64,000 bases of DNA. Origin: Candidatus Bathyarchaeota archaeon (GTDB taxonomy: Archaea; Thermoproteota; Bathyarchaeia; Bathyarchaeales; Bathycorpusculaceae). The stretch spans positions 224,001-288,000 of the forward strand of contig CAVZIW010000006.1 of assembly GCA_963775465.1 (NCBI GenBank), in the 5' to 3' direction. This document shows positions 1 through 20,971 of this stretch, in pieces. Under the pieces are notes generated by a model that saw only the letters and a program-made list of their open reading frames with translations, searched no databases and was not told the origin of the DNA. Every line of letters starts with the position of its first letter. Position 1 is the first letter of the stretch. A program made the position numbers and the translations under genes.

Positions 1-1543
1 CTTGGGCCATAGCTTTGTTGGCTCGAACAATTCTGTGATTGTTATCTAAAATCGCAATCAAGTCTGGGACGCTATCAAAAGTGCGTTCCCAATCAACCTT
101 GGCTTTCTTTAAAGCATCTTCAGCTTTAATTCGTTCTGTTATATCTACGTTAGATTCCATTATTTCTGTAATTTTTCCTTTCTGGTTCAGTTTAGGTTGC
201 CAACAACTTTGAACTGTTAATTCTCTTCCATTCTTGGCGGTGTGCAAAAGGTCTCCTGACCATGTGTTGTTCTTTTTAAGATTCAAAACTATTTTTTTGT
301 AAGGCTCGGGAAATTTTGTTTTCAACAATTCACTGGCATTTTGCCCCAAGGCTTCTTTTTTTGACCAACCGTACAATTTTTCTGCGCCTTTGCTCCAGAA
401 AATTATTGCTCCCCCTAAGTCCCGCACAAAAATGCCGTCTAGACTTAAATCGATTAAGGCAGCTTGGTTGAACACCTCAGCTTGGGCTCGATCCTTATCT
501 GCTTTAAGCCGAAGCATCATTATTCCACGCGCAAAATCACTTGCCAGTTCCGTCAATAATTTAACTTCATCGTCTGAACAAAAATCTTTTTCAGCAGAAT
601 AAAGAGTTAAAGCGCCTAAGACTGTTTCTCCTAATTTTAATGGGAGCGCAATCGATGATGCGTAGCCTCTTTTGAGTGCTTCCTTTCTCCAAGGTTTGAG
701 CGTTGGATCCGTTAGTATGTTTACGCATAGCTGGGGTTGTCCTGTACGAATTGCTCTCCCGGTTGGACCGCGACCCCTAGCTGTATCCGCCCACGTAATC
801 TTCAACGAATCAAGATATCCTTCCTCAAAACCTGCATATGCCACTGGCAGGACAGATTTTGCAACGTCTTTTTGGGCCAATCCAACCCAGACCATCTTAT
901 AGCCACAATCTATGCTAATTATTCTGCAGATTTCCTGCAAGAATGATTCTTCATCAACGGCGCGTGTGAGGGCTTGGCTGCTATTGCTCATTGCTCTCAA
1001 AGTACGGTTAGCTTTCTTAAGTTCGGTTTCTACACGTTTTTGCTTCAAAATCTTGCTTAGTTCATTACCGACTAATTCAAGTTTAGCAATATCCTCTTTG
1101 TTATAGCGCTTTTTTTTATTGCCAACTCCGAAGATAGCATAGACTTTCCCTTTTTCCAAAATAGGATAACTCACTAATCTTTCTAATGGAACATGTCCTT
1201 TTGGAAGCCCTTTTTGGTTGGGGCTCACTTTAAAGTCGTTATATATAATTGGATGTTTTTTACGAATACTGTCTGCCAAGTTACCTGCTTGCTCTATTGG
1301 GTAATGTTTATCATAATATGTGCTGCAATTTTGAAGTGTTCTTTTATTCCATAAGGTCAACTTTATTGTCTTTTGATCGTTGTTCACAAAATGGAAAAAC
1401 CCTATCTTGCTTTCGGTTACTTCTATCGCGTGATCTAAGAAGTACTCGTAGAGTTTACTTTCATCTATGTCTAACGCTTTCTTGTAGAGTTCTAGTAGAA
1501 AGCTGGTTTTTTCCTTTGTTTTTTGGCCTGAATCGTGGGTCAT
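1..1543 (-). CDS. GAF-GAF-PAS sensor protein (probable histidine kinase), runs off the window start
   Basis: Not in the ORF track. Manual translation from ATG at 1543 gives MTHDSGQKTKEKTSFLLELYKKALDIDESKLYEYFLDHAIEVTESKIGFFHFV (GAF), then ITWADTARGRGPTGRAIRTGQP (GAF), then IIFWSKGAEKLYGWSKKEALGQ (PAS). Confidence 0.85.
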   Translation of the reverse strand, partial: MTHDSGQKTKEKTSFLLELYKKALDIDESKLYEYFLDHAIEVTESKIGFFHFVNNDQKTIKLTLWNKRTLQNCSTYYDKHYPIEQAGNLADSIRKKHPIIYNDFKVSPNQKGLPKGHVPLERLVSYPILEKGKVYAIFGVGNKKKRYNKEDIAKLELVGNELSKILKQKRVETELKKANRTLRAMSNSSQALTRAVDEESFLQEICRIISIDCGYKMVWVGLAQKDVAKSVLPVAYAGFEEGYLDSLKITWADTARGRGPTGRAIRTGQPQLCVNILTDPTLKPWRKEALKRGYASSIALPLKLGETVLGALTLYSAEKDFCSDDEVKLLTELASDFARGIMMLRLKADKDRAQAEVFNQAALIDLSLDGIFVRDLGGAIIFWSKGAEKLYGWSKKEALGQNASELLKTKFPEPYKKIVLNLKKNNTWSGDLLHTAKNGRELTVQSCWQPKLNQKGKITEIMESNVDITERIKAEDALKKAKVDWERTFDSVPDLIAILDNNHRIVRANKAMAQ

Positions 1544-1692
1544 GATGTGCCATTCTTCGGTTTGCTAAAAAGAAGATGAGAGAGTTCAAAAAGTTTTCGA
1601 TAACTGATTGCTTCAGAATTCTGTTGTTGCCAGGTGAACCAACATTCATTTTTATATTATTTTGCAGTCTTGTTCAAGAAAGTGAGTATTTC

Positions 1693-1821
1693 ATGGCTAT
1701 TTGCCCCAACTGCAGAAAAGAAGTGGCGACTTCAGTGCGGAAGATAGAGAACTCGTTCTTTTGCATAGAACTCTATTCTTGTATTGATTGTGGATGCTCT
1801 TTTAAGTCTTTTAGTGGTTAA
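1693..1821 (+). CDS. small Zn-ribbon protein (42 aa)
   Basis: MAICPNCRKEV...YSCIDCG has two CxxC pairs; an ATG follows AGTGAG within the 1576..1821 ORF. Confidence 0.65.
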   Translation: MAICPNCRKEVATSVRKIENSFFCIELYSCIDCGCSFKSFSG

Positions 1822-2052
1822 GCTTGGTTTACCTTAACAGTGAAGGTTTTATTTTTAGGCTCCACGGTTTTTTCATATGGATATTTTTAGGGTATTTCAT
1901 TCAATTTGCGATGTTTTTTACTATTTTATGCCTAAAAGTTGGTGTTTTGATATCAGGTTGTCTATTTGAAACTTTTAAGTTGTTGTTGCAGGATGTAATC
2001 ACATTGTTTTATATCCTTCCGAAAAGTTATGAGTAGTTAGGAATGCAAGGGA

Positions 2053-2173
2053 TAGCCAACAAAGTTAAGCGGGTCCGGCTGCTACCGAAGGGGAAGGCGC
2101 TGCCCACATGAATTCTATGCCTTATCCCAAACTAGCACAAGGCTAGGTCCGCTTAACCCAACATTTTTGGCTA
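2053..2173 (-). ncRNA. candidate structured ncRNA (multi-stem junction), family unknown
   Basis: Nested inverted repeats TAGCCAA/TTGGCTA and GTTAAGCGG/CCGCTTAAC enclose three hairpins. G-U pairs favour the minus strand, and there is a TATA-like AAGCTTAATA at ~2211-2220 on the minus strand. Confidence 0.45.
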
Positions 2174-2532
2174 ATCAGACACTGTAGCTGCAATTGATAA
2201 GACGTTACTCTATTAAGCTTATTATGATCATTTTTTTGCATTAACTTATCTAACTTTTTTAAAATCCTCCAATTTTTATCCACATTCAGCAGTGCTGTGA
2301 AATGCGATTTGTCTGAACCTGCCAGCAGCCTATTAGTATTTTGCGAGATTTAAGGAGAAATAAATACTGACATTTTAATAGAACCATTAAAACTTGACCT
2401 TTTCTGCTTTAAACAAGGCCAAAAATAGACCCGTAGTTTTAAGATGGAATTAGGAACAAAAATATTGTTCATTCTGCGGACAAAAGAGATATAGGACTTG
2501 CACCTTTTTGATTCCAACGCAAGTGAAATCCA

Positions 2533-3678
2533 ATGTCCATTCCAAATGCTGAAGAGAACAACAATGAAATGGTGATTACCCCTTGGGAAGTTAAAGGTAA
2601 AGTAGATTATCAACGGCTAATCAAAGAGTTTGGCACTCAACCCCTCACTTCTAAACTCCTCCAGCGTATGGAGAAGCATACCGACAGGCTCCATCTGCAG
2701 CTTGAGCGAGAAATTTTCTTCAGTCACCGCGACTTAGACACTGTATTGGATCTATGCGATAAAGGTACAAAATTCGTTTTGTATACGGGCAGAGGACCAT
2801 CTGGGCCTGTCCATATTGGTCACCTCGTTCCCTGGATATTTACTCTTCACATGCAAAAGACATTCAAAACGAGGCTCTATTTCCAACTAACCGACGACGA
2901 AAAATACCTAATTAGCGATAACGCTGACCTCAAAACCACAGCCAAATGGAGCTACGAAAACGCTTTGGACCTAATTGCATTGGGCTTCAAACCAGAGGAC
3001 ACTTTCATAATATACGATACTAAAGATATAGACTTGCTATATAGCATAACATTAGAAGTTGCTAAACGTATCACCTATAGTACAGCTCGAAGTAGCTTCG
3101 GATTTCAGGATAGCACCAACATCGGCTGGGTTTATTGGCCTGCCATCCAAGCTGCGCCATGCTTTATCCACAAAAAACTCACCGGCGAAAACGTTCCTGC
3201 ACTTATCCCTGCAGCTATAGACCAAGATCCCTATTGGCGGGTAACCCGCGACATCGCTCAAAAACTCGGCTACTACAAACCAGCACAAATTCATTGTCGT
3301 TTTCTACCAGGACTCGGTGCAGGCGGAAAAATGAGTGCTAGCATGCCAGAAACCAGCATTTTCACCACTGACAAGCCTGATGCTGTTAAAAAGAAAATCT
3401 GGAATGCTCTTACCGGAGGCAAAGGTACCGCAGCGGAACAACGCAAAACAGGCGCTGATCCCACGGTTTGCAGCATTTTCCAGTATTACTTTTTCCTCTT
3501 CGAAGAAGACAACAAGAAACTTTCCGAACGCGAGCGCAAATGCCGAGGTGGCGAAATGTTGTGCGGCGAATGCAAAAAAGACTTGGCAGAAAAACTCAAC
3601 GAGTTCCTAATGAAACATCAGGAATGTCGAGAAAAAGCAAAAGACAAGATCGAACAATACAACATAAAACGCAAATAA
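2533..3678 (+). CDS. trpS: tryptophanyl-tRNA synthetase (archaeal type)
   Basis: YTGRGPSGPVHIGH (HIGH), AIDQDPY and KMSAS motifs. Confidence 0.97.
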   Translation: MSIPNAEENNNEMVITPWEVKGKVDYQRLIKEFGTQPLTSKLLQRMEKHTDRLHLQLEREIFFSHRDLDTVLDLCDKGTKFVLYTGRGPSGPVHIGHLVPWIFTLHMQKTFKTRLYFQLTDDEKYLISDNADLKTTAKWSYENALDLIALGFKPEDTFIIYDTKDIDLLYSITLEVAKRITYSTARSSFGFQDSTNIGWVYWPAIQAAPCFIHKKLTGENVPALIPAAIDQDPYWRVTRDIAQKLGYYKPAQIHCRFLPGLGAGGKMSASMPETSIFTTDKPDAVKKKIWNALTGGKGTAAEQRKTGADPTVCSIFQYYFFLFEEDNKKLSERERKCRGGEMLCGECKKDLAEKLNEFLMKHQECREKAKDKIEQYNIKRK

Positions 3679-3875
3679 ATTTAAAAACCGCTCCCAATTT
3701 CGATTATCTGAAACTAATTTTTTATTCAATATTCATTAATTTCGAAATCTTTGAACTATCAGATATACACCAAACGAATTGCAACGAAGATTCACTAACT
3801 TACTTAATTTCCTTCATTCAAGCGATTTTTCTTAAAAAATCAAGTTTTCTAAATTGATTTTTAATTTTATATAGA

Positions 3876-4163
3876 TCAATGTTTCTCTATTTTTTCTTCT
3901 TTTTTATTTAGTTCAATTTTCATTTTGGACTGTACTTTTTTTCTTTGCTTAAATATTAGATATTCTAGCCAGATGCCTATTATCCCACTGCTGAAAAAGA
4001 CTAGTCCACTGACAGCGGCGGGTAATGCTAGGGGGCGATATGGATAAATAACATTTGAGGCGCTCGTTTGCGTCTTTGAAAAAATAAAGAAAACCGTCAT
4101 TGCAAGGAACATTATGCCTATAATTGAAAAACTGTATCCTAAAAAAGCACGCAGATTTGCCAT
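3876..4163 (-). CDS. small two-TM membrane protein
   Basis: Two hydrophobic segments and a Lys-rich tail. Confidence 0.5.
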   Translation of the reverse strand: MANLRAFLGYSFSIIGIMFLAMTVFFIFSKTQTSASNVIYPYRPLALPAAVSGLVFFSSGIIGIWLEYLIFKQRKKVQSKMKIELNKKEEKIEKH

Positions 4164-8570: not shown

Positions 8571-9842
8571 CTACTTTTTCTTGTTTAGGTCCTCTAAGAA
8601 CTCTTTGGCGCGATCTACTCGGACTTTGCCTTCTTTAACCATTAGATCAGCAACCAAATCGATTTGACCTTCCTTTGCTCCAGCATTAATTGCTATGTTA
8701 CGGGCATGCAAAGACATGTGACCCCTCTGAATGCCTTCACTTGCAAGCGCACGAAGAGCACCCAAATTTTGGGCTAAGCCAACAGAAGCCAAGATTTCAC
8801 CAAACTCATTTGCAGATTTAACATTTAATATTTTCATAGCGATTCGGGCAATGGGATGAGTTTTTACAGCCCCCCCGATTAATCCAACTGCCATAGGCAT
8901 TTCGATCGTGCCTTCCAAGTCGCCATTAACGTTCTTAGACCATTTAGAAATTGAAGTGTATGGTCCGTTCAGAGCTGCGTAAGCATGTGCTCCTGCCTCT
9001 ATTGCTCGATGATCGTTGCCTGTGGCTAAAACCACAGCAACTATCCCATTCATGACACCTTTGTTGTGTGTGGCTGCACGGTATGGATCTGCTGCCGCGA
9101 AAGCTGAAGCATAGGCAATTCCGTCTACAACTGCCTCGCCACCTAGAGCTTCTTTAGGTACAGTACACCAAGCTTTAACTAAACGTTTTGTGGCTAAATT
9201 AGAAATTATTCTAAGGTAAACGTGTCCATTAGTTAATTGTTCAATCATTGGCGCTATGGCTTCTGTCATCGTATTAACCGCATTTGCACCCATTGCATCG
9301 CGACAGTCAACATATAAATGAACAATCAACATTTCCTCCATGGTCGTATCGATAACTCGAGCATCCAAATCCTTCGCTCCACCACCAAACGAGTTGAGGA
9401 CGGGATCTTGATCATTAGCCTTCTTTAGGAGTTCTGATTTTGCGTCTATGACCTGTTCTTTGGCTTGGTTTGCATTTCTAAGTTTGACAACTTGGATTTG
9501 TCCAATCATTACAGGTGTTGTGCTGCTAGTGTGGAATCCTCCACCGTCGCGTACCATTTTTGCAGCGTAGCTTGCCGCTGCTATGACGCTTGGTTCTTCA
9601 GTTGCCATAGGTATTAAGTAATCTTTTCCGTTGATCTGGAAGTTCACACCGATGCCCATTGGTTCTGGAAAAACACCGATGACATTTTCAACCATATGAT
9701 CAGCCAAATCCATCGGGAGTGAACATGATTCTTGCAGTAAATTTGCTTCTTCATCGGTCAAGCCAGCAAAATCTTTCACAATTGCTAAGCGTTCTTTAGG
9801 GGAGAGCTTGTAGAATCCTGAGATTAAAGATGACTTAGCCAT
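8571..9842 (-). CDS. mvaA: HMG-CoA reductase, class II (degradative/MvaA type)
   Basis: ENVIG, PMATEEPSVIAA, DAMGANAVN, THNKG and GIQRGHMSLH motifs. Confidence 0.93.
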   Translation of the reverse strand: MAKSSLISGFYKLSPKERLAIVKDFAGLTDEEANLLQESCSLPMDLADHMVENVIGVFPEPMGIGVNFQINGKDYLIPMATEEPSVIAAASYAAKMVRDGGGFHTSSTTPVMIGQIQVVKLRNANQAKEQVIDAKSELLKKANDQDPVLNSFGGGAKDLDARVIDTTMEEMLIVHLYVDCRDAMGANAVNTMTEAIAPMIEQLTNGHVYLRIISNLATKRLVKAWCTVPKEALGGEAVVDGIAYASAFAAADPYRAATHNKGVMNGIVAVVLATGNDHRAIEAGAHAYAALNGPYTSISKWSKNVNGDLEGTIEMPMAVGLIGGAVKTHPIARIAMKILNVKSANEFGEILASVGLAQNLGALRALASEGIQRGHMSLHARNIAINAGAKEGQIDLVADLMVKEGKVRVDRAKEFLEDLNKKK

Positions 9843-9919
9843 ATTTAGATCACTTCGCAAGTGATTGTTTGATTTTCTACATTTAAACTTTGACTAAACC
9901 CCAACTCAAAACGCTTCAC

Positions 9920-14003: not shown

Positions 14004-15188
14004 TTATTGGGTTACTGAATGATACCAGCTGATGATATATTCAGGCAGATTCAAACCCCGTTCGCCAAGACGCTCCGCTAGTTTCACTGGTAATGGACTT
14101 AGTACGTAAGCTGCACGCGTATAGAAGCGTCTTGGAGTGCTGGGTTTAACTTCTTCTGGCAAAATGATTTTTAAATCCGCTTTGTTAGCAAGAGTGGAGT
14201 CTTTATTGCCTGTTATTGCGAAGACGGTTCCGCCGAATTTCTTGAGTACATCAGCCCAAATGATGACGGGGCGGGTTTCGCCTGAGAAAGACAATAGAAT
14301 TTCCAGGTCTCCAGCTCGAGGGTGCGGAGTGTTGACTCCTCTTGTGATGTAAACGTTATCGCCGAGAAAACTCTTAATGTGGAAAAGGCGAACACCAGTC
14401 ATTTTAGCAATTTCATTTCCTGTTCCTTTTCCGCCCAAAAAAACGTTTGTTCTTTTCTCCATTATGTCGACGAGTTGATTATACGTTTCTGATGTAACAT
14501 TGGAGTCTATCATATCTCCAACTTTTTCAAATTCTTCTTCACATAGACGGAAGACATCATTGACTTCAAGATTGCGGAATATTGCTTCAATCATGCTGTT
14601 CAGGAGTTCCAATGTGCCAAGCTCAAAAATGTCGCCCATCATTCCGGTTTCCGCATATTCGGTTCCTGGCTTGGATTTGCCGCGTCCCTTAATTTGAACT
14701 ACATGACCAAATTTGTTCGTAATGTCCGCTAATGGTGATTTTACTGCGGAAGTCAAAAGACCCATGGAGAAATGATTGGACTTTTTTTCTTTAATGTATC
14801 TCGCTAGATCCTGAGCCATAACCAAAGGATCGTCGCTGTAACCGCTCCCCGAATTCATCAGAAGCAAAGTTTTTTTGTATCTACGTTGAAGGTCTGGCGC
14901 TGCATCATACATACTTTTGCCAGGAAAACCGGGATCATCAGGTGTTAAAATAACTTTGTTTCGCCAGCCTACTTGACTTAACGCGATTTGGCTCATAGCA
15001 GCGTTAAGTGAATAAAGAGAACGTCCGGATCCTCCGCAAATGACGCAGTCGGCTGCTTTTAGTTCTTCATATAGAGGTGCGAGTTCTCGTTTCTTTATGC
15101 ACATAATGTTTTCTTGAATTTTATTGACGTATCCTATACTGCTGATTTTGCTTTTAATGGAAACGGCACCTTCTAGTTCAAACATCAT
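14004..15188 (-). CDS. tandem SIS-domain sugar-phosphate isomerase (HxlB/PHI-like)
   Basis: Two SIS-like halves: GGSGRS...NSGSG and GGKGTG...GDLEILLSFSGET...ITGNKDSTLA. Confidence 0.75.
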   Translation of the reverse strand: MMFELEGAVSIKSKISSIGYVNKIQENIMCIKKRELAPLYEELKAADCVICGGSGRSLYSLNAAMSQIALSQVGWRNKVILTPDDPGFPGKSMYDAAPDLQRRYKKTLLLMNSGSGYSDDPLVMAQDLARYIKEKKSNHFSMGLLTSAVKSPLADITNKFGHVVQIKGRGKSKPGTEYAETGMMGDIFELGTLELLNSMIEAIFRNLEVNDVFRLCEEEFEKVGDMIDSNVTSETYNQLVDIMEKRTNVFLGGKGTGNEIAKMTGVRLFHIKSFLGDNVYITRGVNTPHPRAGDLEILLSFSGETRPVIIWADVLKKFGGTVFAITGNKDSTLANKADLKIILPEEVKPSTPRRFYTRAAYVLSPLPVKLAERLGERGLNLPEYIISWYHSVTQ

Positions 15189-15396: not shown

Positions 15397-16326
15397 GTGC
15401 TGCATTTGGGGTTCAAAGACCGAGATATTGTATCAATCGAAGACTTCTCCCAAGCCGAAATCAACCATATTCTCGACATGGCTAAAAAAATGGAACCCAT
15501 CGCTAAAACAGGCTCAGACATGCTTAAGGGTAAAATCCTAGCCACATTATTCTTTGAACCTAGCACTCGTACTCGTCTTAGTTTTGAAACTGCCATGTTA
15601 AAACTCGGAGGCAACTACATCGGATTTGCTGAACCAGATATAACATCTGCTCGCAAAGGCGAAAACTTGGCAGATACCGTGCGTACAGTTGAAAATTACG
15701 CGGACGTAATAACACTTAGGCACAGTTTAGAAGGTTCAGCCAAGTTGGCGGCAGAATTCTCCAAAGTTCCAATTATCAATGCAGGTACAGGCGCCGAGGA
15801 GCATCCAACCCAAGCTTTTATTGACTTGTACACGATGCGCAAGGACAAAGGCGAAATCAATGGATTAAAAGTTGCCCTAGTGGGCGACTTGCGCTACGGC
15901 AGAACCGTACATTCGCTAGCCTATGCGTTAGCGCTCTACAACGTAGAACTCCACCTTGTTTCGCCTGAAGCGTTACGAATGAGAAAAGAAGTACTCCAAA
16001 CCATAAAAAATAAAATCTCCGTAACGGAACACATCAATCTCGATGCTTTGATCTCTCAAATCGATGTTCTCTACATCACTCGTATCCAAAAAGAACGCTT
16101 CCCTGACGCTGCCGAGTATGCTAAGGTCAAAGGCGCTTACAAAGTCGACCTAAAAACGCTGAAAAACGCTAAGAAAAATATGATTATTCTGCACCCGCTG
16201 CCCCGGGTCGACGAAATCGCTGCCGAAGTAGATAGCACACCCCAAGCGCGCTACTTTCAGCAGGTCTGGAATGGCATCGTAGTCCGCATGGCGCTACTTT
16301 CATTGGTTTTGGGCGCGATTAAATAA
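15397..16326 (+). CDS. pyrB: aspartate carbamoyltransferase catalytic subunit
   Basis: FFEPSTRTRLSFE, HPTQ and HPLPRVDEI motifs. Confidence 0.97.
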   Translation: MLHLGFKDRDIVSIEDFSQAEINHILDMAKKMEPIAKTGSDMLKGKILATLFFEPSTRTRLSFETAMLKLGGNYIGFAEPDITSARKGENLADTVRTVENYADVITLRHSLEGSAKLAAEFSKVPIINAGTGAEEHPTQAFIDLYTMRKDKGEINGLKVALVGDLRYGRTVHSLAYALALYNVELHLVSPEALRMRKEVLQTIKNKISVTEHINLDALISQIDVLYITRIQKERFPDAAEYAKVKGAYKVDLKTLKNAKKNMIILHPLPRVDEIAAEVDSTPQARYFQQVWNGIVVRMALLSLVLGAIK

Positions 16327-16397: not shown

Positions 16398-18611
16398 CTA
16401 TGTTGAAGAGAAACGGTCAAAGGTTGTCAGGTTACTCATGGAACCGCATGAGGGACATTTATGTAACATTCTATACCAGTTCTTCTTGCAGTTATCGCAA
16501 GAGCTGATCAAGCGACTGTACGTAAAAAATTCTACAATTTGGTTTTCGATCAATCGAAGGGTTAGATCCATGAGGGCTTCGGTCTTATACTCTGCGTTTT
16601 CAAGTTCGATAATGCTTAAGTTTCCGCCGGCATTTAATCCTCTAAATCTCTGTGCTGTCTCCAATACATCTGTCTGAAGCGACAAAAGTTCAGCAGATTT
16701 AAGATGGAATCGTATGGAAGTTGAATAATAGGGTTTCTCTCGAGTTCCAGAGAACTTCACTTTAGCTACTCCGAATCTCTCTATGTCAAGTTGTGCCAAT
16801 CGTTCAGAGGCTTCAGTAGAACCCAAGATCACAGGATAGAGTCGCTTAACATATCTTCTGCCAATTTTTTGTTTGAAAGAGGTAACATTAGCTACAATCT
16901 CTTCAGCAAAAACCCGACTCTCCTCTGAGTTTATGCTTTTTCCTGTAAAGTCTTCAACTGACTCCCGAAATCCAGCTAAATTAACTATTCTAGAGCAGTT
17001 TTCGAGTCTGAAGTAGGTATCACCACCTGTTTTCTGCAAGAGAAACGGCAACGCGTTCTTTCCAAACTGCTTTAACGCATTATTCTTAATTTGCAAAGCT
17101 CTGGCGGAAAGTTCAAACCGCTCCTTGAGTAAATCTTGGAATTTATGCTTATCCTTGTCACATTCAAGAGTAATTCTGGGTAAGTTTATAGTTACTTCGC
17201 CTAAGCATCCCGTTCTAAGCGTATCGGTTTCCCAGTCACCCGTTAAATCAGCAGCCAATTTGACCCCAGAAGCCGAAAACGCCACGTTTTCGCTATTTTT
17301 TAGGTCTAAATTGGCAAAAAAGGGTGTTCCGCTTTGCAGTGCCAACTTGTGAGCTTTCAAAAGAACAGATTTTGCTTCTTTGTTTGAGAGTGCTTCCCCA
17401 TTGATTTTTATGATTAGTTTAGGACTAAGCAACGGCTTGATTGTACTCTCTTCAATGAAAACATCAATAATAAGCGAAGCGAGAAGCAAGCTTTCTTGAG
17501 CAAAATCGTTGTATATTCCGATAGCTTTGCCCTGCGGTCCAACAGCTTCTTTTTCAGCGGTTTGTTTTGGAATTAACAAGTCAAGTCCCAACGTGGTTTC
17601 CGTATGTTGGTTGAGACTTAAAATGAAAAGCCGAAGGGTTTCCTTGATTTTTGACTGCTCATTTCCCCTTATGAAAGGCGCTAAGAACACATTGAAGTAG
17701 TTGAATGTCTGCATTCTATTGGTCTCACTTGCGGTGTGGAGCAGGACATTAAACGCTATGGATAGGGCAGATTTGAGATTGCTAGGTGGACTCATTGATT
17801 GCTGTGTTGGCTTAACAAGAGCTATACCATGCTGGAAAAAAAAGCGAAGGTCGTGAACAACTTCATTGGGCTTTAGAATCCAAGTGCCTAACTCGTCGAT
17901 GTGGATCACTCCTGAAAGATGAGCGTCGGCTATGTCTCGGGGGAAAATATTTAGCAATGTATATTCACCCAGAACCGTTTGCCCCGCTTTGCTAATCGTG
18001 GTAGCGCAGTCTTGATTGGTGTCTTTTGCCTCAATTAATACTGTGACTTCATGAATCGGCATACCAACACGGGTAAGTTTATGGCGATATTCTTCATAAC
18101 CCTTTTCAACCAAAATCGAATTCACAACCTCTCGGATAAGGGAAGCTGTGAGATACTTTGTTTTTGATTTAATAAGACGTTTTTCAGCCTCTTTTGCAGC
18201 TTTCTGCGCCAGTTCTGCAGGAACTTTAGCCTCTTTAATTAAAGCGTTGGCGATCTTGTTTACGTCAAATTCTTCCATCGTTAAATGTGAAGTCCGAACT
18301 AGCATACCCCGCGGTTTAACTGCTTTCTTTTCCACGCGGTCAGCCACATCGAGAACCATCTTGCCTAGGTCAGTTAAACAATACTTTTTTGCTTCAACAT
18401 CTGCTTCAACCAAATCTGCTTTCAACATAAATTTCAAGTGATAAGCAAATCTCCCTGCGTCACGGCTCGGGTTCATTTTCAGCTGGTTCATAAGTTCCGA
18501 GTAAGATAGGGCGCTTTTATCAAAAAGAAGGTTGAGAATTTGCAGTCGTAGGGGTGAAGAAACCGCTTTGAGTACATTAACACCACGCGAACGAGGCTGC
18601 TGCTTAACCAT
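16398..18611 (-). CDS. ArsR-like wHTH + ATP-cone + class III ribonucleotide reductase-like domain (apparently catalytically inactive)
   Basis: N-terminal SSPLRLQILNLL...FAYHLKFM (wHTH); EEFDVNKIANALIKEA...LIREVVN (ATP cone); DAHLSGVIHI and VTINLPR; C-terminal CxxC-CxxC; no RxxGY glycyl loop. Confidence 0.8.
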   Translation of the reverse strand: MVKQQPRSRGVNVLKAVSSPLRLQILNLLFDKSALSYSELMNQLKMNPSRDAGRFAYHLKFMLKADLVEADVEAKKYCLTDLGKMVLDVADRVEKKAVKPRGMLVRTSHLTMEEFDVNKIANALIKEAKVPAELAQKAAKEAEKRLIKSKTKYLTASLIREVVNSILVEKGYEEYRHKLTRVGMPIHEVTVLIEAKDTNQDCATTISKAGQTVLGEYTLLNIFPRDIADAHLSGVIHIDELGTWILKPNEVVHDLRFFFQHGIALVKPTQQSMSPPSNLKSALSIAFNVLLHTASETNRMQTFNYFNVFLAPFIRGNEQSKIKETLRLFILSLNQHTETTLGLDLLIPKQTAEKEAVGPQGKAIGIYNDFAQESLLLASLIIDVFIEESTIKPLLSPKLIIKINGEALSNKEAKSVLLKAHKLALQSGTPFFANLDLKNSENVAFSASGVKLAADLTGDWETDTLRTGCLGEVTINLPRITLECDKDKHKFQDLLKERFELSARALQIKNNALKQFGKNALPFLLQKTGGDTYFRLENCSRIVNLAGFRESVEDFTGKSINSEESRVFAEEIVANVTSFKQKIGRRYVKRLYPVILGSTEASERLAQLDIERFGVAKVKFSGTREKPYYSTSIRFHLKSAELLSLQTDVLETAQRFRGLNAGGNLSIIELENAEYKTEALMDLTLRLIENQIVEFFTYSRLISSCDNCKKNWYRMLHKCPSCGSMSNLTTFDRFSST

Positions 18612-18712
18612 TGCCTTTTTTCTCTCCCTAACTCACAAATTTGATAGCGCCTACCTATTATTCCACTCGAGAGTTTAAACTTAACTAAAAAATTCTTACA
18701 TGAATTAGATAA

Positions 18713-19762
18713 TCAATCAATGCAAGGTTGCTGTTGACTGATGCAGTGGATAGTACCAAACCCATAAACCAAATCGCTGCATCTGATTCCAACAACTTTA
18801 CGTGAGGGAAAAAGTTCCTGCAATATTGATAACGCTTTTTCATCATTCTCATGGTCAAAAACTGGTACAAGCACTTTGGTGTTTCCAATGTAAAAATTAG
18901 TATAACTTGCCGGCAAACGTTCTTCTTCGTTGATAACAACTTTGGGCATAGGCAACTTAACAATTCGGATTTTTTCGCCATCTTGATCGACCGCTTGACA
19001 AAGGATATCGTAGTTTTCTTTTAGAGTATCATAGTTTATGTCATTTTGATTTTCTTCAAAAGCGCAAACAATTGTTTTTTCGTTTACAAATCTTGCTATG
19101 TCATCGATATGCCCATCTGTGTCATCACCGAAAATACCGCTTTTGAGCCATATGAAGTTGTTAACGCCAAAGTATTCACTTAGAATCTTTTCAATCTGTT
19201 TCTTGTCTAAATTTGGATTGCGATTTTTATTTAGCAGACACTGCTCAGTCGTTAACAGTGTTCCCCTGCCATTTACATCAATTGAGCCACCTTCGAGAAC
19301 CATACCTGGTTTAAAGCATTTTAACGCCAGTTTCTGGTTAATAACTTCCGGTATTTGCTTGTCTTTTAACAGAGTTTCATATTTTTCGCCCCAAGAGTTG
19401 AACTCCCACTGCACCATTGCAAGCTCATGCTTGCTGTTCCTTACGAAGATTGGGCCGTAATCCCTAAACCAAACATCAGCGTAGTCGAAAATATAGAATT
19501 CGACTCTACTCAAATCAATGTTTTCTTCTTTGAAGAGTCTTTCCGCTTTGTCTTTAGCTTTCAGACCAGTAACAAAAAGATTCACCCTTTCACTCAAGTG
19601 GATTTCTTTAACAATCTGTACATAGATTGTTTCAACAAGTTCAACTTTCTCAGGGAAAGTCGTAGGGTCATGGGGCCAAGCGAGCCAGATGGCATCGTGC
19701 TTTTCCCATTCTGCAGGCATGTAAAAACCTTGTTCAAAGCAAGATATTTCGTTATTACTCAT
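18713..19762 (-). CDS. aguA: agmatine deiminase
   Basis: MPAEWEKH, WFRDYGP, LEGGSID, DTDGHIDD and GTIHCISQQQP motifs. Confidence 0.94.
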   Translation of the reverse strand: MSNNEISCFEQGFYMPAEWEKHDAIWLAWPHDPTTFPEKVELVETIYVQIVKEIHLSERVNLFVTGLKAKDKAERLFKEENIDLSRVEFYIFDYADVWFRDYGPIFVRNSKHELAMVQWEFNSWGEKYETLLKDKQIPEVINQKLALKCFKPGMVLEGGSIDVNGRGTLLTTEQCLLNKNRNPNLDKKQIEKILSEYFGVNNFIWLKSGIFGDDTDGHIDDIARFVNEKTIVCAFEENQNDINYDTLKENYDILCQAVDQDGEKIRIVKLPMPKVVINEEERLPASYTNFYIGNTKVLVPVFDHENDEKALSILQELFPSRKVVGIRCSDLVYGFGTIHCISQQQPCID

Positions 19763-20675
19763 CCAGAGCGCCACTGTTGGTTTCTAAAAGCTGTTTGTAT
19801 GTGTCGGGGCGTCGATTGCGGAGAAATCCCCATCCTTCTTGAATTCTTTTATTATGCGTTAAGTCAACCGTTACTACCAATACCTCCTCATTTTTAGATC
19901 CGGCTTCCGCGAGGACTTTGCCAAAAGCGTTGCAGATAAAAGAGCCACCCCAAAACTCCAAAATCCCTTCCGAACCAACACGGTTAACTGCGGCGACATG
20001 GACACCGTTTGCTATTGCATGTGCGCGTTGCACCGTTTTCCAAGCATCATGCCAATCCCCATCTTGAGATGTCTGGTCAAAAATATACCCTATGGCAGTG
20101 GGGTAAAACAGGATTTCTGCGCCTTTTAACACGTTAATTCGAGCTGCTTCAGGGAACCATTGGTCATAACAAATAAGAACTCCAATTTTCGCGTATTTTG
20201 TATTGAAAACTCGGTACTTTGACTCGCCTTCCGTGAAGTATTCTTTTTCGTAAAAGTAGGGATCCTGTGGAATGTGAATTTTGCGATAAACACCCAAGAC
20301 TTCGCCGTCAGCATCAATTACAGCGGCTGAATTATGAAACTTGCCGTTTTGGTCTTTTTCAAAGATGGGAACAATTATGACAACGTGATGCTTTTTTGAT
20401 AGCTCTGAGAAAAGTCTTGTAGATTCCCCTGGGATGGTCTCTGCCAACGAAGATACCTTTTGGTTTTCTTTCTGAGGAAAATACCTCGAACGGTAAAGCT
20501 CCTGAAGGCATATTATCTGTGCGCCTCTGCCCGCAGCTTCCTCAATTTTCTTTGCAGTTTTTTGCATATTTTCTGTTATGTTTTCTGAAACGGCGGTTTG
20601 GATAAGTGCAACGGAAACTATCTGGTTGCTTTTTCTGGTATTCTTGAGACTTTGAGTAGGTATGTTCTTGTCCAT
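19755..20675 (-). CDS. aguB: N-carbamoylputrescine amidase (carbon-nitrogen hydrolase)
   Basis: CLQEL, YRKIHIP, ICYDQWFPEAAR, YPTAIG and RNRRPDTY motifs; coupled to aguA; start moved to MDKNIP. Confidence 0.88.
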   Translation of the reverse strand: MDKNIPTQSLKNTRKSNQIVSVALIQTAVSENITENMQKTAKKIEEAAGRGAQIICLQELYRSRYFPQKENQKVSSLAETIPGESTRLFSELSKKHHVVIIVPIFEKDQNGKFHNSAAVIDADGEVLGVYRKIHIPQDPYFYEKEYFTEGESKYRVFNTKYAKIGVLICYDQWFPEAARINVLKGAEILFYPTAIGYIFDQTSQDGDWHDAWKTVQRAHAIANGVHVAAVNRVGSEGILEFWGGSFICNAFGKVLAEAGSKNEEVLVVTVDLTHNKRIQEGWGFLRNRRPDTYKQLLETNSGALDE

Positions 20676-20971
20676 CCTTGTCGGTTCAACTATTCTATGT
20701 GCTGTTGATATTAACTTTTTTGAAAAAAAGAAAAACAAGCAAGGTAAAAACCAGCAACTATTTTCAGCAGCAAGAAGTAAAACAGCCACTTAAAAAAAGC
20801 CTTGTTCTTAAGTAACTTTTTTCAAGGAATACCGACAACATTAAAAAGATTTTATTCACCTGCTTAAGAAAATAACATCTTGGTTAAATGCGGTCTTTTC
20901 GTTTTGCACAAAGAAACTATTTATTAAGTTAGACTGTGGTCAATAGTTAGTTTACTAAGGGGCTATTTAGA

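Follow-up and report, generated by a model that had tools for sequence, protein, structure and literature searches.

NrdD proteins (PF13597) are the catalytic subunits of class III (glycyl-radical) ribonucleotide reductases (RNRs), for which structures have been solved from T4 (1h78), T. maritima (4coi), P. copri (8p23), and S. thermophilus (9d3x). PMC11226230 singles out their NxN flap, HxHD triphosphate motif, radical Cys, sixth-strand Asn, and radical-loop Gly-Tyr. For the P. copri enzyme it assigns the thiyl radical to Cys416, on the finger-loop tip, and describes Lys7 and Arg8 in the beta-hairpin roof, which contact the nucleotide phosphates. NrdR (TIGR00244), the RNR-specific repressor of bacteria, consists of a zinc ribbon and an ATP-cone and binds tandem NrdR boxes in front of RNR operons under the control of ATP/dATP. 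It is rare in archaea according to PMC9110341. Here, we analyzed a gene located on the reverse strand of a 64,000-nucleotide (nt) stretch of the Candidatus Bathyarchaeota archaeon genome (assembly GCA_963775465.1, contig CAVZIW010000006.1, positions 224,001 to 288,000), hereafter called the window. Its product, referred to as the pseudoenzyme, joins an N-terminal ArsR-type winged helix-turn-helix to an ATP-cone-like domain and an NrdD-like body. On balance, we favor the reading that it is a dead descendant of an archaeal-type class III RNR and serves as a ligand-responsive, DNA-binding regulator of nucleotide-supply genes, whose DNA binding, ligand, and targets we infer. Support for this reading comes from the winged helix and the cone, which are better conserved than the rest of the protein, and from the gene context, as nrdD, nrdJ, or pyrBI repeatedly adjoin the gene.

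The pseudoenzyme resembles NrdR in joining a DNA-binding domain to an ATP-cone-type domain, in the frequent location of its gene beside RNR genes of different classes, and in a cone segment that reads EEFDVNKI, compared with ERFDVNKI in the NrdR of the same genome. It probably also works like NrdR, as a DNA binder that depends on the nucleotide pool. It differs from NrdR in having an ArsR-type winged helix instead of the zinc ribbon, a whole dead NrdD body of ~540 residues, and a cone without the basic pair, and a true NrdR coexists with it in the genome. TIGR00244 and the zinc ribbon PF22811 were both absent from its NCBIfam and Pfam matches at E ≤ 1. It is not a member of the NrdR family, though NrdR is closest to it in likely function.

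Domain order and loss of the catalytic residues

The open reading frame encodes 737 amino acids (aa), starts with ATG, and contains no internal stop. Pfam detected HTH_5 (PF01022, ArsR/SmtB) at residues 19–69 (28.6 bits, cut-off 22), DUF7347 at residues 13–88 (32.7 bits, cut-off 27.6), ATP-cone (PF03477) at residues 104–175 (30.6 bits, cut-off 25.8), and NRDD at residues 202–732 (202.5 bits), which bears out the order of ArsR-like head, ATP cone, and NrdD-like body given in the original prediction. The NRDD match covers profile positions 9–537 of 562, and the last 25 positions, including the glycyl-radical loop, have no match in the window protein. As an ArsR/SmtB relative, the N-terminal ~90 residues exceed the Pfam cut-off, but this head is fused to ~640 residues of RNR-derived sequence. 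A profile of the family matched solved NrdDs strongly (E 1.9e-45 to 6.8e-34) and solved ArsR/HlyU structures weakly (E 1.5e-3 to 9.5e-3). The AlphaFold model (pLDDT 87.6, pTM 0.79) placed a beta-hairpin followed by helices at the cone. A Foldseek search with this model gave class III RNRs at every rank from 1 to 36 (E 1e-26 to 7e-19; target-normalised TM-scores 0.58–0.75), and the window protein thus has the NrdD fold. The C-terminal zinc site had been described as kept, and its four Cys are indeed invariant among the aligned relatives.

The catalytic residues are missing from this scaffold, as was evaluated by alignment with T4 NrdD, the canonical NrdD of the same genome, and 15 catalytic relatives. 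The segment FSASGVKL lies at the finger loop that carries the thiyl Cys (pmgCRSF in T4, SMCCRLRI in the genome's own NrdD, and (M/Q)CCR in the catalytic relatives). KPNEVVHD lies opposite the first barrel strand, which carries the second Cys in catalytic NrdDs (PYCVGWD or GPYCVGWD; PFCQEHD or RPFCQEHD). The tail DRFSST aligns to SR[IV][TV]GY with Ser736 replacing the radical Gly, and the stop codon follows one residue later. All three losses had been proposed from the window sequence, and the alignments agree with them. Neither catalytic Cys was found in any of 52 family members from ~50 genomes, and this pattern is far beyond chance.

The loss extends to substrate binding, as was seen when 44 members were compared with 12 catalytic relatives using the motif definitions of PMC11226230. 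All 12 relatives carry ENxN at the NxN flap, HIH(D/E) at HxHD, the second Cys, the CC finger loop, and the radical Gly. The 44 members have gaps throughout the flap and none has the second Cys or the CC finger loop; the first His of HxHD is kept in 39 while its other residues are lost (H-I-D-E in the window protein). In place of the radical Gly, Ala is the most frequent residue (15/44). A Gly occurs at or beside that position in 6 of the 52 members, in which both Cys are missing too. The former active site is therefore an unlikely sensor of (deoxy)ribonucleoside triphosphates, because the NxN flap and HxHD are lost. Other NrdD features are kept, namely Asn and Arg of NLPR (44/44 each), Arg and Asp of RxxxxD (42 and 44), the second Tyr of YY (44), both residues of GG (42 and 41), and the zinc ribbon. 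Distant members still show a recognisable, degenerate radical domain (...SRSSAKYLPLQWW), whereas in the genus of the window it has been cut off.

Two ways in which an intact enzyme might have been overlooked were considered and rejected. A frameshift or truncation artefact is contradicted by the two other downstream frames, which contain no RxxGY and are full of stops; the stop codon is only 71 nt from the end of the convergent pyrB gene. It is also contradicted by the database, where 119 of the best 120 matches (72–99% identity) are equal in length and have the same four domains. Among these, 118 span 734–747 aa and one partial entry has 725 aa; the remaining match is a 692-aa entry short at its N-terminus. 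The Cys of RTGC was considered as a substitute thiyl Cys, but catalytic NrdDs have Ser at its position, and within the family it varies.

Sources name the Bathyarchaeia entries either "anaerobic ribonucleoside-triphosphate reductase" or "ArsR family transcriptional regulator". The former label, together with the NRDD match, would make the protein a working anaerobic ribonucleotide reductase. We give this practically no chance and regard it as refuted at the sequence level, since both the thiyl and the second Cys are missing, as are the radical Gly and its domain. The protein moreover scores 231.4 bits for the NrdD equivalog TIGR02487 (NCBIfam), under the cut-off of 326.35, and 202 bits for PF13597, compared with 651 bits for the canonical NrdD, which is encoded together with a complete nrdG elsewhere in the genome. 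The window protein is thus dead as a ribonucleotide reductase. By descent it is part of the NrdD superfamily, yet it fails as NrdD on every catalytic count, and it further differs from NrdD in its added winged helix.

Table 1. Features of the pseudoenzyme gene and its neighbours in the window.
Feature	Position	Strand	Basis or remark
Whole pseudoenzyme gene (winged helix-turn-helix, ATP-cone-like, NrdD-like)	16398..18611	−	737-aa open reading frame, Pfam, AlphaFold, Foldseek
ArsR-type winged helix-turn-helix, N-terminal, ~residues 12–97	18321..18578	−	HTH_5, DUF7347
ATP-cone-like domain, ~residues 102–190, best-conserved part	18042..18308	−	Pfam ATP-cone
NrdD-like ten-stranded barrel body, ~residues 196–700, without radical and substrate-binding motifs	16512..18026	−	Pfam NRDD
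C-terminal four-Cys zinc ribbon, C705/C708/C719/C722	16446..16499	−	Invariant Cys in 49/49 aligned relatives
Vestigial glycyl-radical loop R733-F-S-S-T737 and stop codon	16398..16415	−	Ser736 at radical Gly position; remaining radical domain missing
Promoter region of the pseudoenzyme gene	18612..18712	−	Aligned upstream regions of relatives; candidate operator only
pyrB, aspartate carbamoyltransferase catalytic chain, convergent	15397..16326	+	TIGR00670 394.6 bits, cut-off 236.95
Agmatine-deiminase-like and N-carbamoylputrescine-amidase-like genes	18713–19774, 19755–20789	−	Directly upstream, 20-nt overlap
394-aa protein, C-terminal SIS domain like 6-phospho-3-hexuloisomerase (under cut-off), N-terminal half without assignment	14004–15188	−	Divergent from pyrB

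Distribution, origin and shift of constraint

The original prediction had raised the question of conservation across Bathyarchaeia, and the architecture turned out to be kept across this class and beyond. Among database representatives at 50% identity, 1656 matched at E ≤ 1e-3 and 312 at E ≤ 1e-30. When the sampled genomes of the class were searched at E ≤ 1e-100, 133 places were counted by eye in at least 132 of 201 genomes, nearly all of which span the query from residue ~5–15 to ~725–737. Only weak matches (~1e-25 to 1e-38) were obtained in a large family of 43 genomes and in a few further families, and these matches are taken to be cross-hits to catalytic NrdDs. The genus of the window carries the pseudoenzyme in 12 of 12 genomes (its own and 11 sampled; 61–75% identity to the window protein), and further relatives in the database are up to 99% identical. 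When only residues 1–260 were used for the search, matches at E ≤ 1e-8 were obtained in 280 of 401 genomes of the phylum, typically over residues 9–256 and inside open frames of 700–780 aa. One family of complete genomes (1.2–4.3 Mb) had the N-terminal match in 56 of 56 members, while at the same threshold none was found in several other families, complete genomes included (0/23, 0/16, 0/15, and 0/12). For close relatives of one member of the 56-genome family, the organisms given by the sources are Candidatus Nitrosotenuis and other ammonia oxidisers. These are aerobes, in which a glycyl-radical enzyme would not be expected. The family is ancient and widespread, is maintained by selection, and is not decaying.

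Two side observations were made during these searches. Genome G085 has two full-length pseudoenzyme copies on contigs C13 and C11 (E 3.9e-176 and 3.1e-165). Relatives of 1000–1700 aa (P0177, P0180, P0196, P0200, P0218, P0240, P0242, and others) have 2–4 separate matching stretches, and may be NrdD-type proteins with inteins or other insertions.

A quick IQ-TREE phylogeny (LG+G4, 56 rows) was constructed after trimming the winged helix before alignment and leaving out 18 loci of close-kin genomes, 6 of already represented genomes, and one masked-residue protein. The 44 members formed a single clade (SH-aLRT 100), sister to 10 archaeal-type catalytic NrdDs (SH-aLRT 99), with a provisional root because the outgroup, which includes the genome's bacterial-type NrdD, has two rows only. 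The tree points to a single origin of the family. The sister enzymes also share the V-R-T-S start of the cone and are encoded directly downstream of the pseudoenzyme in several genomes. Since they do so, the origin fits a tandem duplication, followed by fusion of the winged helix and loss of the chemistry.

Mean pairwise identity was evaluated separately for each part of the protein. It is 0.64 in the cone of the members and 0.51 in that of the catalytic sister clade, 0.47 in the winged helix (n = 44; not applicable to the sisters), and 0.33 in the body, compared with 0.58 in the sister clade. The members were sampled from a wider taxonomic range than the sister enzymes. The higher identity of the members' cone is therefore a conservative result, and the lower identity of their body is due in part to this sampling. 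Alignment A1 has 23 invariant columns, of which 17 fall within the first 185 residues and 13 in the cone; the invariant residues of the winged helix are L29, H58, Y77, and G83. Residues 210–254 and those on the floor of the former active site are the best conserved within the body. Constraint has thus moved to the head, with the cone and winged helix best conserved and the body relaxed.

The residues that line the former active site raise the idea that the barrel is still an enzyme, or processes a ligand, by non-radical chemistry, and that the head only targets or regulates it. N476, R479, R604, D609, Y629, G662-G663, and E550 are near-invariant in the 44 members, as would be expected of such an enzyme. 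We consider this unlikely, because the body is the least conserved part, the NxN and HxHD motifs that bind the base and triphosphate are lost, and the residues that remain may have a structural role. The loci examined revealed no co-occurring partner enzyme.

Gene neighbourhood and the reductases of the genome

The regulatory reading also draws on gene context, which was scored in 40 loci (L023–L062) picked on taxonomic spread and contig span before their context was known. Inspected by eye within two genes, 22 of these have pyrB/pyrI, 8 have an RNR gene (nrdD or nrdJ), 29 have either, and 11 have neither. In a second blind sample of 11 loci from other classes of the phylum, nrdJ lies directly downstream in 3, pyrB/pyrI adjoins in 5, and neither is present in 3. 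The three loci with nrdJ all belong to the ammonia-oxidiser family (3/3 complete genomes), and this nrdJ carries a canonical ATP-cone of 80 bits. Loci fetched after the adjacency had been seen (L015–L022 and L063–L068) were kept out of these counts. In L015–L022 the pseudoenzyme gene and then a catalytic nrdD stand in tandem, and in L063–L068 and L047, seven genomes of one family, it is located upstream of the gene for a ~755-aa class II RNR (PF02867, 500 bits). Other flanking genes vary widely between loci, which argues against plainly inherited gene order.

In the window, the convergence with pyrB, which was identified by its TIGR00670 match, is confirmed, and nrdG is not adjacent, as had been stated; the neighbours are pyrB, the SIS-domain gene, and the agmatine-deiminase-like and N-carbamoylputrescine-amidase-like genes. 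The latter two, which would form putrescine from agmatine, score under their NCBIfam equivalog cut-offs, and the pair adjoins the pseudoenzyme gene in only some genomes of the genus. HMG-CoA reductase was seen as a recurrent upstream neighbour, within two genes in 7 of 67 loci (L015, L019, L051, L052, L067, L069, and L070). The window has its own HMG-CoA reductase gene at 8571–9860 (−), ~7 kb from the pseudoenzyme gene.

A separate intact RNR, for which a check had been proposed, was found in the 2.42-Mb assembly (92% complete). PF13597 matches exactly two proteins of this genome, the window protein and the canonical NrdD, and PF02867 (class I/II RNR) matches none. The canonical NrdD is encoded by an nrdR-nrdD-nrdG operon on another contig (L001: genome G000, contig C10, 22865–27592; genes at 698–1147, 1144–3270, and 3284–3961). 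Its NrdR scores 150.5 bits for TIGR00244 (cut-off 124.65) and has the PF22811 zinc ribbon; NrdD has 708 aa with the motifs MCCRLRI and RVVGYLRP, and is 23% identical to the window protein; NrdG scores 186.6 bits for TIGR02495 (cut-off 131.15). Inverted repeats (TAGTGT...ACACTA) upstream of the operon are conserved across the genus and its family, where the NrdR start was locatable in 16 of 17 promoter regions. We take these repeats to look like NrdR boxes, which presumably serve NrdR itself. This NrdD and the archaeal-type sister of the pseudoenzyme are of different types, a difference that suggests horizontal acquisition of the bacterial-type operon. The archaeal-type catalytic sister is absent from this genome, whose sole RNR is the bacterial-type class III operon. 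Because the pseudoenzyme is nevertheless kept throughout the genus, its role here cannot be limited to an adjacent RNR gene.

The same independence was observed on a larger scale. A hand count gave 52 genomes that have the pseudoenzyme without any PF13597 match better than ~1e-88, that is, without a catalytic NrdD, and 51 of these 52 have a PF02867 RNR. In the family to which the window belongs, the RNR complement varies between bacterial-type class III and class II, and all 27 other sampled genomes match the pseudoenzyme at E ≤ 1e-20. Because the RNR complement varies and the protein is kept without a catalytic NrdD, the pseudoenzyme, INDEPENDENCE from NrdD, is not tied to its enzyme of origin. 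These counts also bear on the idea that it is a non-catalytic partner or decoy, which forms heterodimers with a catalytic NrdD and modulates it. Such a role would suit a paralogue of catalytic NrdD that stands in tandem with one in some genomes and for which an NrdD-like dimer interface is predicted. We nevertheless consider it very improbable in view of the 52 genomes without a catalytic NrdD, the close relatives from aerobic ammonia oxidisers, and the other type and low identity of the NrdD of this genome. The conserved winged helix would also be left unexplained.

A putative regulator of nucleotide supply

If the protein is a ligand-responsive regulator, its parts may be speculated to work as follows. 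The body would keep the NrdD-type homodimer, so that two N-terminal ArsR-type winged helices face the DNA, an arrangement shared with ArsR-type regulators. The ATP-cone-like domain between head and body would bind a nucleotide, for which ATP/dATP is the obvious guess, and the ligand would alter the conformation or oligomeric state and thereby change DNA binding. The targets would be deoxyribonucleotide and pyrimidine supply genes, and probably also its own promoter. The class III RNR operon of this genus has its own NrdR, and for this reason the regulon here would have to lie at least partly elsewhere.

The dimer was examined by modeling two copies of the body (residues 196–690), which scored 0.51, compared with 0.00 for the best of 3 controls. 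In the benchmark, 20 of 30 proteins with solved structures of two copies of one chain reached this mark, compared with 1 of 23 whose solved structures contain a single chain, though the score may reflect only likeness to solved NrdD dimers. Contact agreement between runs was at least 97%, with a partner pLDDT of at least 78. The predicted interface is formed by helices 202–214, 280–296, and 324–336 and the hairpin 263–273, corresponding to the dimer and specificity-site region of NrdD. No special conservation of the former specificity site was seen in the members, which gives neither support for nor firm evidence against a retained effector site. In the cone, Arg106, Arg160, Arg176, and Arg181 are invariant, and the C-terminal helix YxxYR...R (Y172, Y175, R176, and R181) is kept.

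In the operator search, the 150–200 nt that precede the gene were taken from 48 genomes and compared with 618 control upstream regions. GTTTAAA on either strand occurs in 34 of 48 regions and 32 of 618 controls, and TTTTTTAAA in 17 of 48 and 4 of 618; these enriched TATA-like words may be a conserved core promoter only. The window has a TATA-like 10-bp palindrome, AGTTTAAACT, at 18672–18681, followed by a genus-conserved block (GGAATAATAGGTAG). The counterpart of this palindrome in other orders is (C)TAATTTTTTAAAC. In the genome AGTTTAAACT occurs only 4 times, and if it doubles as an operator, one may speculate that the protein would repress its own gene by blocking access to the TATA box. The enriched TATA-like words show no such enrichment in front of the other genes compared, where TTTAAA was found for pyrB in 3 of 38, pyrI in 1 of 13, and catalytic nrdD in 4 of 14 regions. 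Visual footprints revealed no motif common to the pseudoenzyme promoter and the pyrB, nrdR-operon, nrdD, and nrdJ promoters, nor a site equivalent to the NrdR box in the promoters compared. No regulon could be derived from these promoter motifs.

Several of the results weigh against the regulatory reading. In the cone, Thr107-Ser108 stands where the genome's own NrdD has Lys-Arg and its NrdR has Lys-Lys, so ATP/dATP sensing is not to be assumed. The invariant arginines, of which Arg106 is one position before Thr-Ser, might be stand-ins for the missing Lys-Arg pair, and ATP/dATP stays the leading guess for the cone ligand. When the cone was compared with solved structures as a single sequence, no ATP-cone was among the matches, and the cone of the sister catalytic enzyme is under the Pfam ATP-cone threshold at E ≤ 1e-4. 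The head scores 30 bits for the ArsR/SmtB subfamily model NF033788 (NCBIfam), whose cut-off is 55. The predicted interface, including the former specificity-site hairpin, is no better conserved (0.41) than the rest of the body (0.47). Concerning the context, related genomes are not independent and part of the shared order may be inherited, and the tail-to-tail arrangement with pyrB is an unusual geometry for a regulator and its target. The RNR operon of this genome has its own NrdR and NrdR-box-like repeats. No operator shared with the pyrB or nrdR-operon promoters of the genus was found, and the genus-conserved promoter-proximal block AATAATAGGTAG is unique in the genome. The proposal of a nucleotide-sensing transcription factor like NrdR hence stands only in part. 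It is the best-supported reading in view of the conserved head and cone and the RNR and pyrBI neighbours, while the Thr-Ser of the cone, the loss of NxN and HxHD, and the genuine NrdR beside the RNR operon qualify its sensing mechanism and its equivalence to NrdR. In this genome, the pseudoenzyme is not simply an archaeal replacement for NrdR.

The missing operator leads to another idea, namely that the pseudoenzyme binds DNA but not in a gene-specific manner, for example as a protein of the nucleoid or one linked to replication, through which replication or repair would be coupled to the nucleotide pool. Conservation of the winged helix and cone would be equally expected in this case, and the persistence of the protein in a genus whose RNR operon has its own NrdR would be readily understood. 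ArsR-type winged helices are, however, typically gene-specific regulators, and the repeated tandem siting directly upstream of nrdD or nrdJ suits a local regulator better. We therefore give a non-specific role a rather low probability.

Three further observations concern promoters and transcripts. In one Bathyarchaeia family (L064, L065, L066, and L068), the nrdJ promoters, which lie immediately after the pseudoenzyme gene, share a strongly conserved block that contains a 7-1-7 palindrome, TTTTTTGTCAAAAAA; in L063 and L047 the block is CTACA-N16-TGTAG. These blocks are candidate operators. In the ammonia oxidisers L077, L078, and L079, the pseudoenzyme gene is preceded by a conserved (3/3 genomes), imperfect inverted repeat, TGATC(A/T)AAAA ... 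TTTTAGATCA, which lies just upstream of a TATA-like element. One metatranscriptome gave a single 235-nt contig (depth ~2) over 17766–17999, which is too little for transcription, start site, or strand.

The regulator reading can be extended to a larger claim, which we put forward only tentatively, as it is clearly the less probable of the two. In much of the Archaea, where NrdR is rare, the supply of deoxyribonucleotides and pyrimidines would then be regulated mainly by this family, which would act on class II and III RNR genes and pyrBI through the recycled allosteric machinery of an RNR. The nucleotide pool would be read by the cone, and possibly also by the specificity site in the dimer interface, and passed on to the two winged helices on DNA. 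In the genus of the window, the protein would act in parallel to the horizontally acquired bacterial NrdR.

No description of the family was found in the full-text literature, with subscription-only journals and supplements outside the search. A look-up of terms in an RNR phylogeny preprint (10.1101/2022.04.23.489257) gave no mention of winged or helix-turn-helix, DNA-binding, or inactive forms, and one in the NrdR paper (PMC9110341) gave no description either. The pseudoenzyme is thus probably an undescribed gene switch for nucleotide supply that is mislabelled in databases as a working enzyme. Thousands of database entries call the family anaerobic ribonucleotide reductase, and this label can mislead metabolic reconstruction by implying anaerobic synthesis of deoxyribonucleoside triphosphates in obligate aerobes or in genomes with class II RNR only. 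To our knowledge, the control of DNA building-block synthesis at the level of transcription is largely unknown in archaea. A conserved, RNR-derived protein with a DNA-binding head, present in most of the sampled Bathyarchaeia and in ammonia-oxidising archaea, provides a concrete and cloneable candidate for such control. If the regulatory reading is true, it would be a clear case of a large radical enzyme that was turned into a pseudoenzyme-based sensor.

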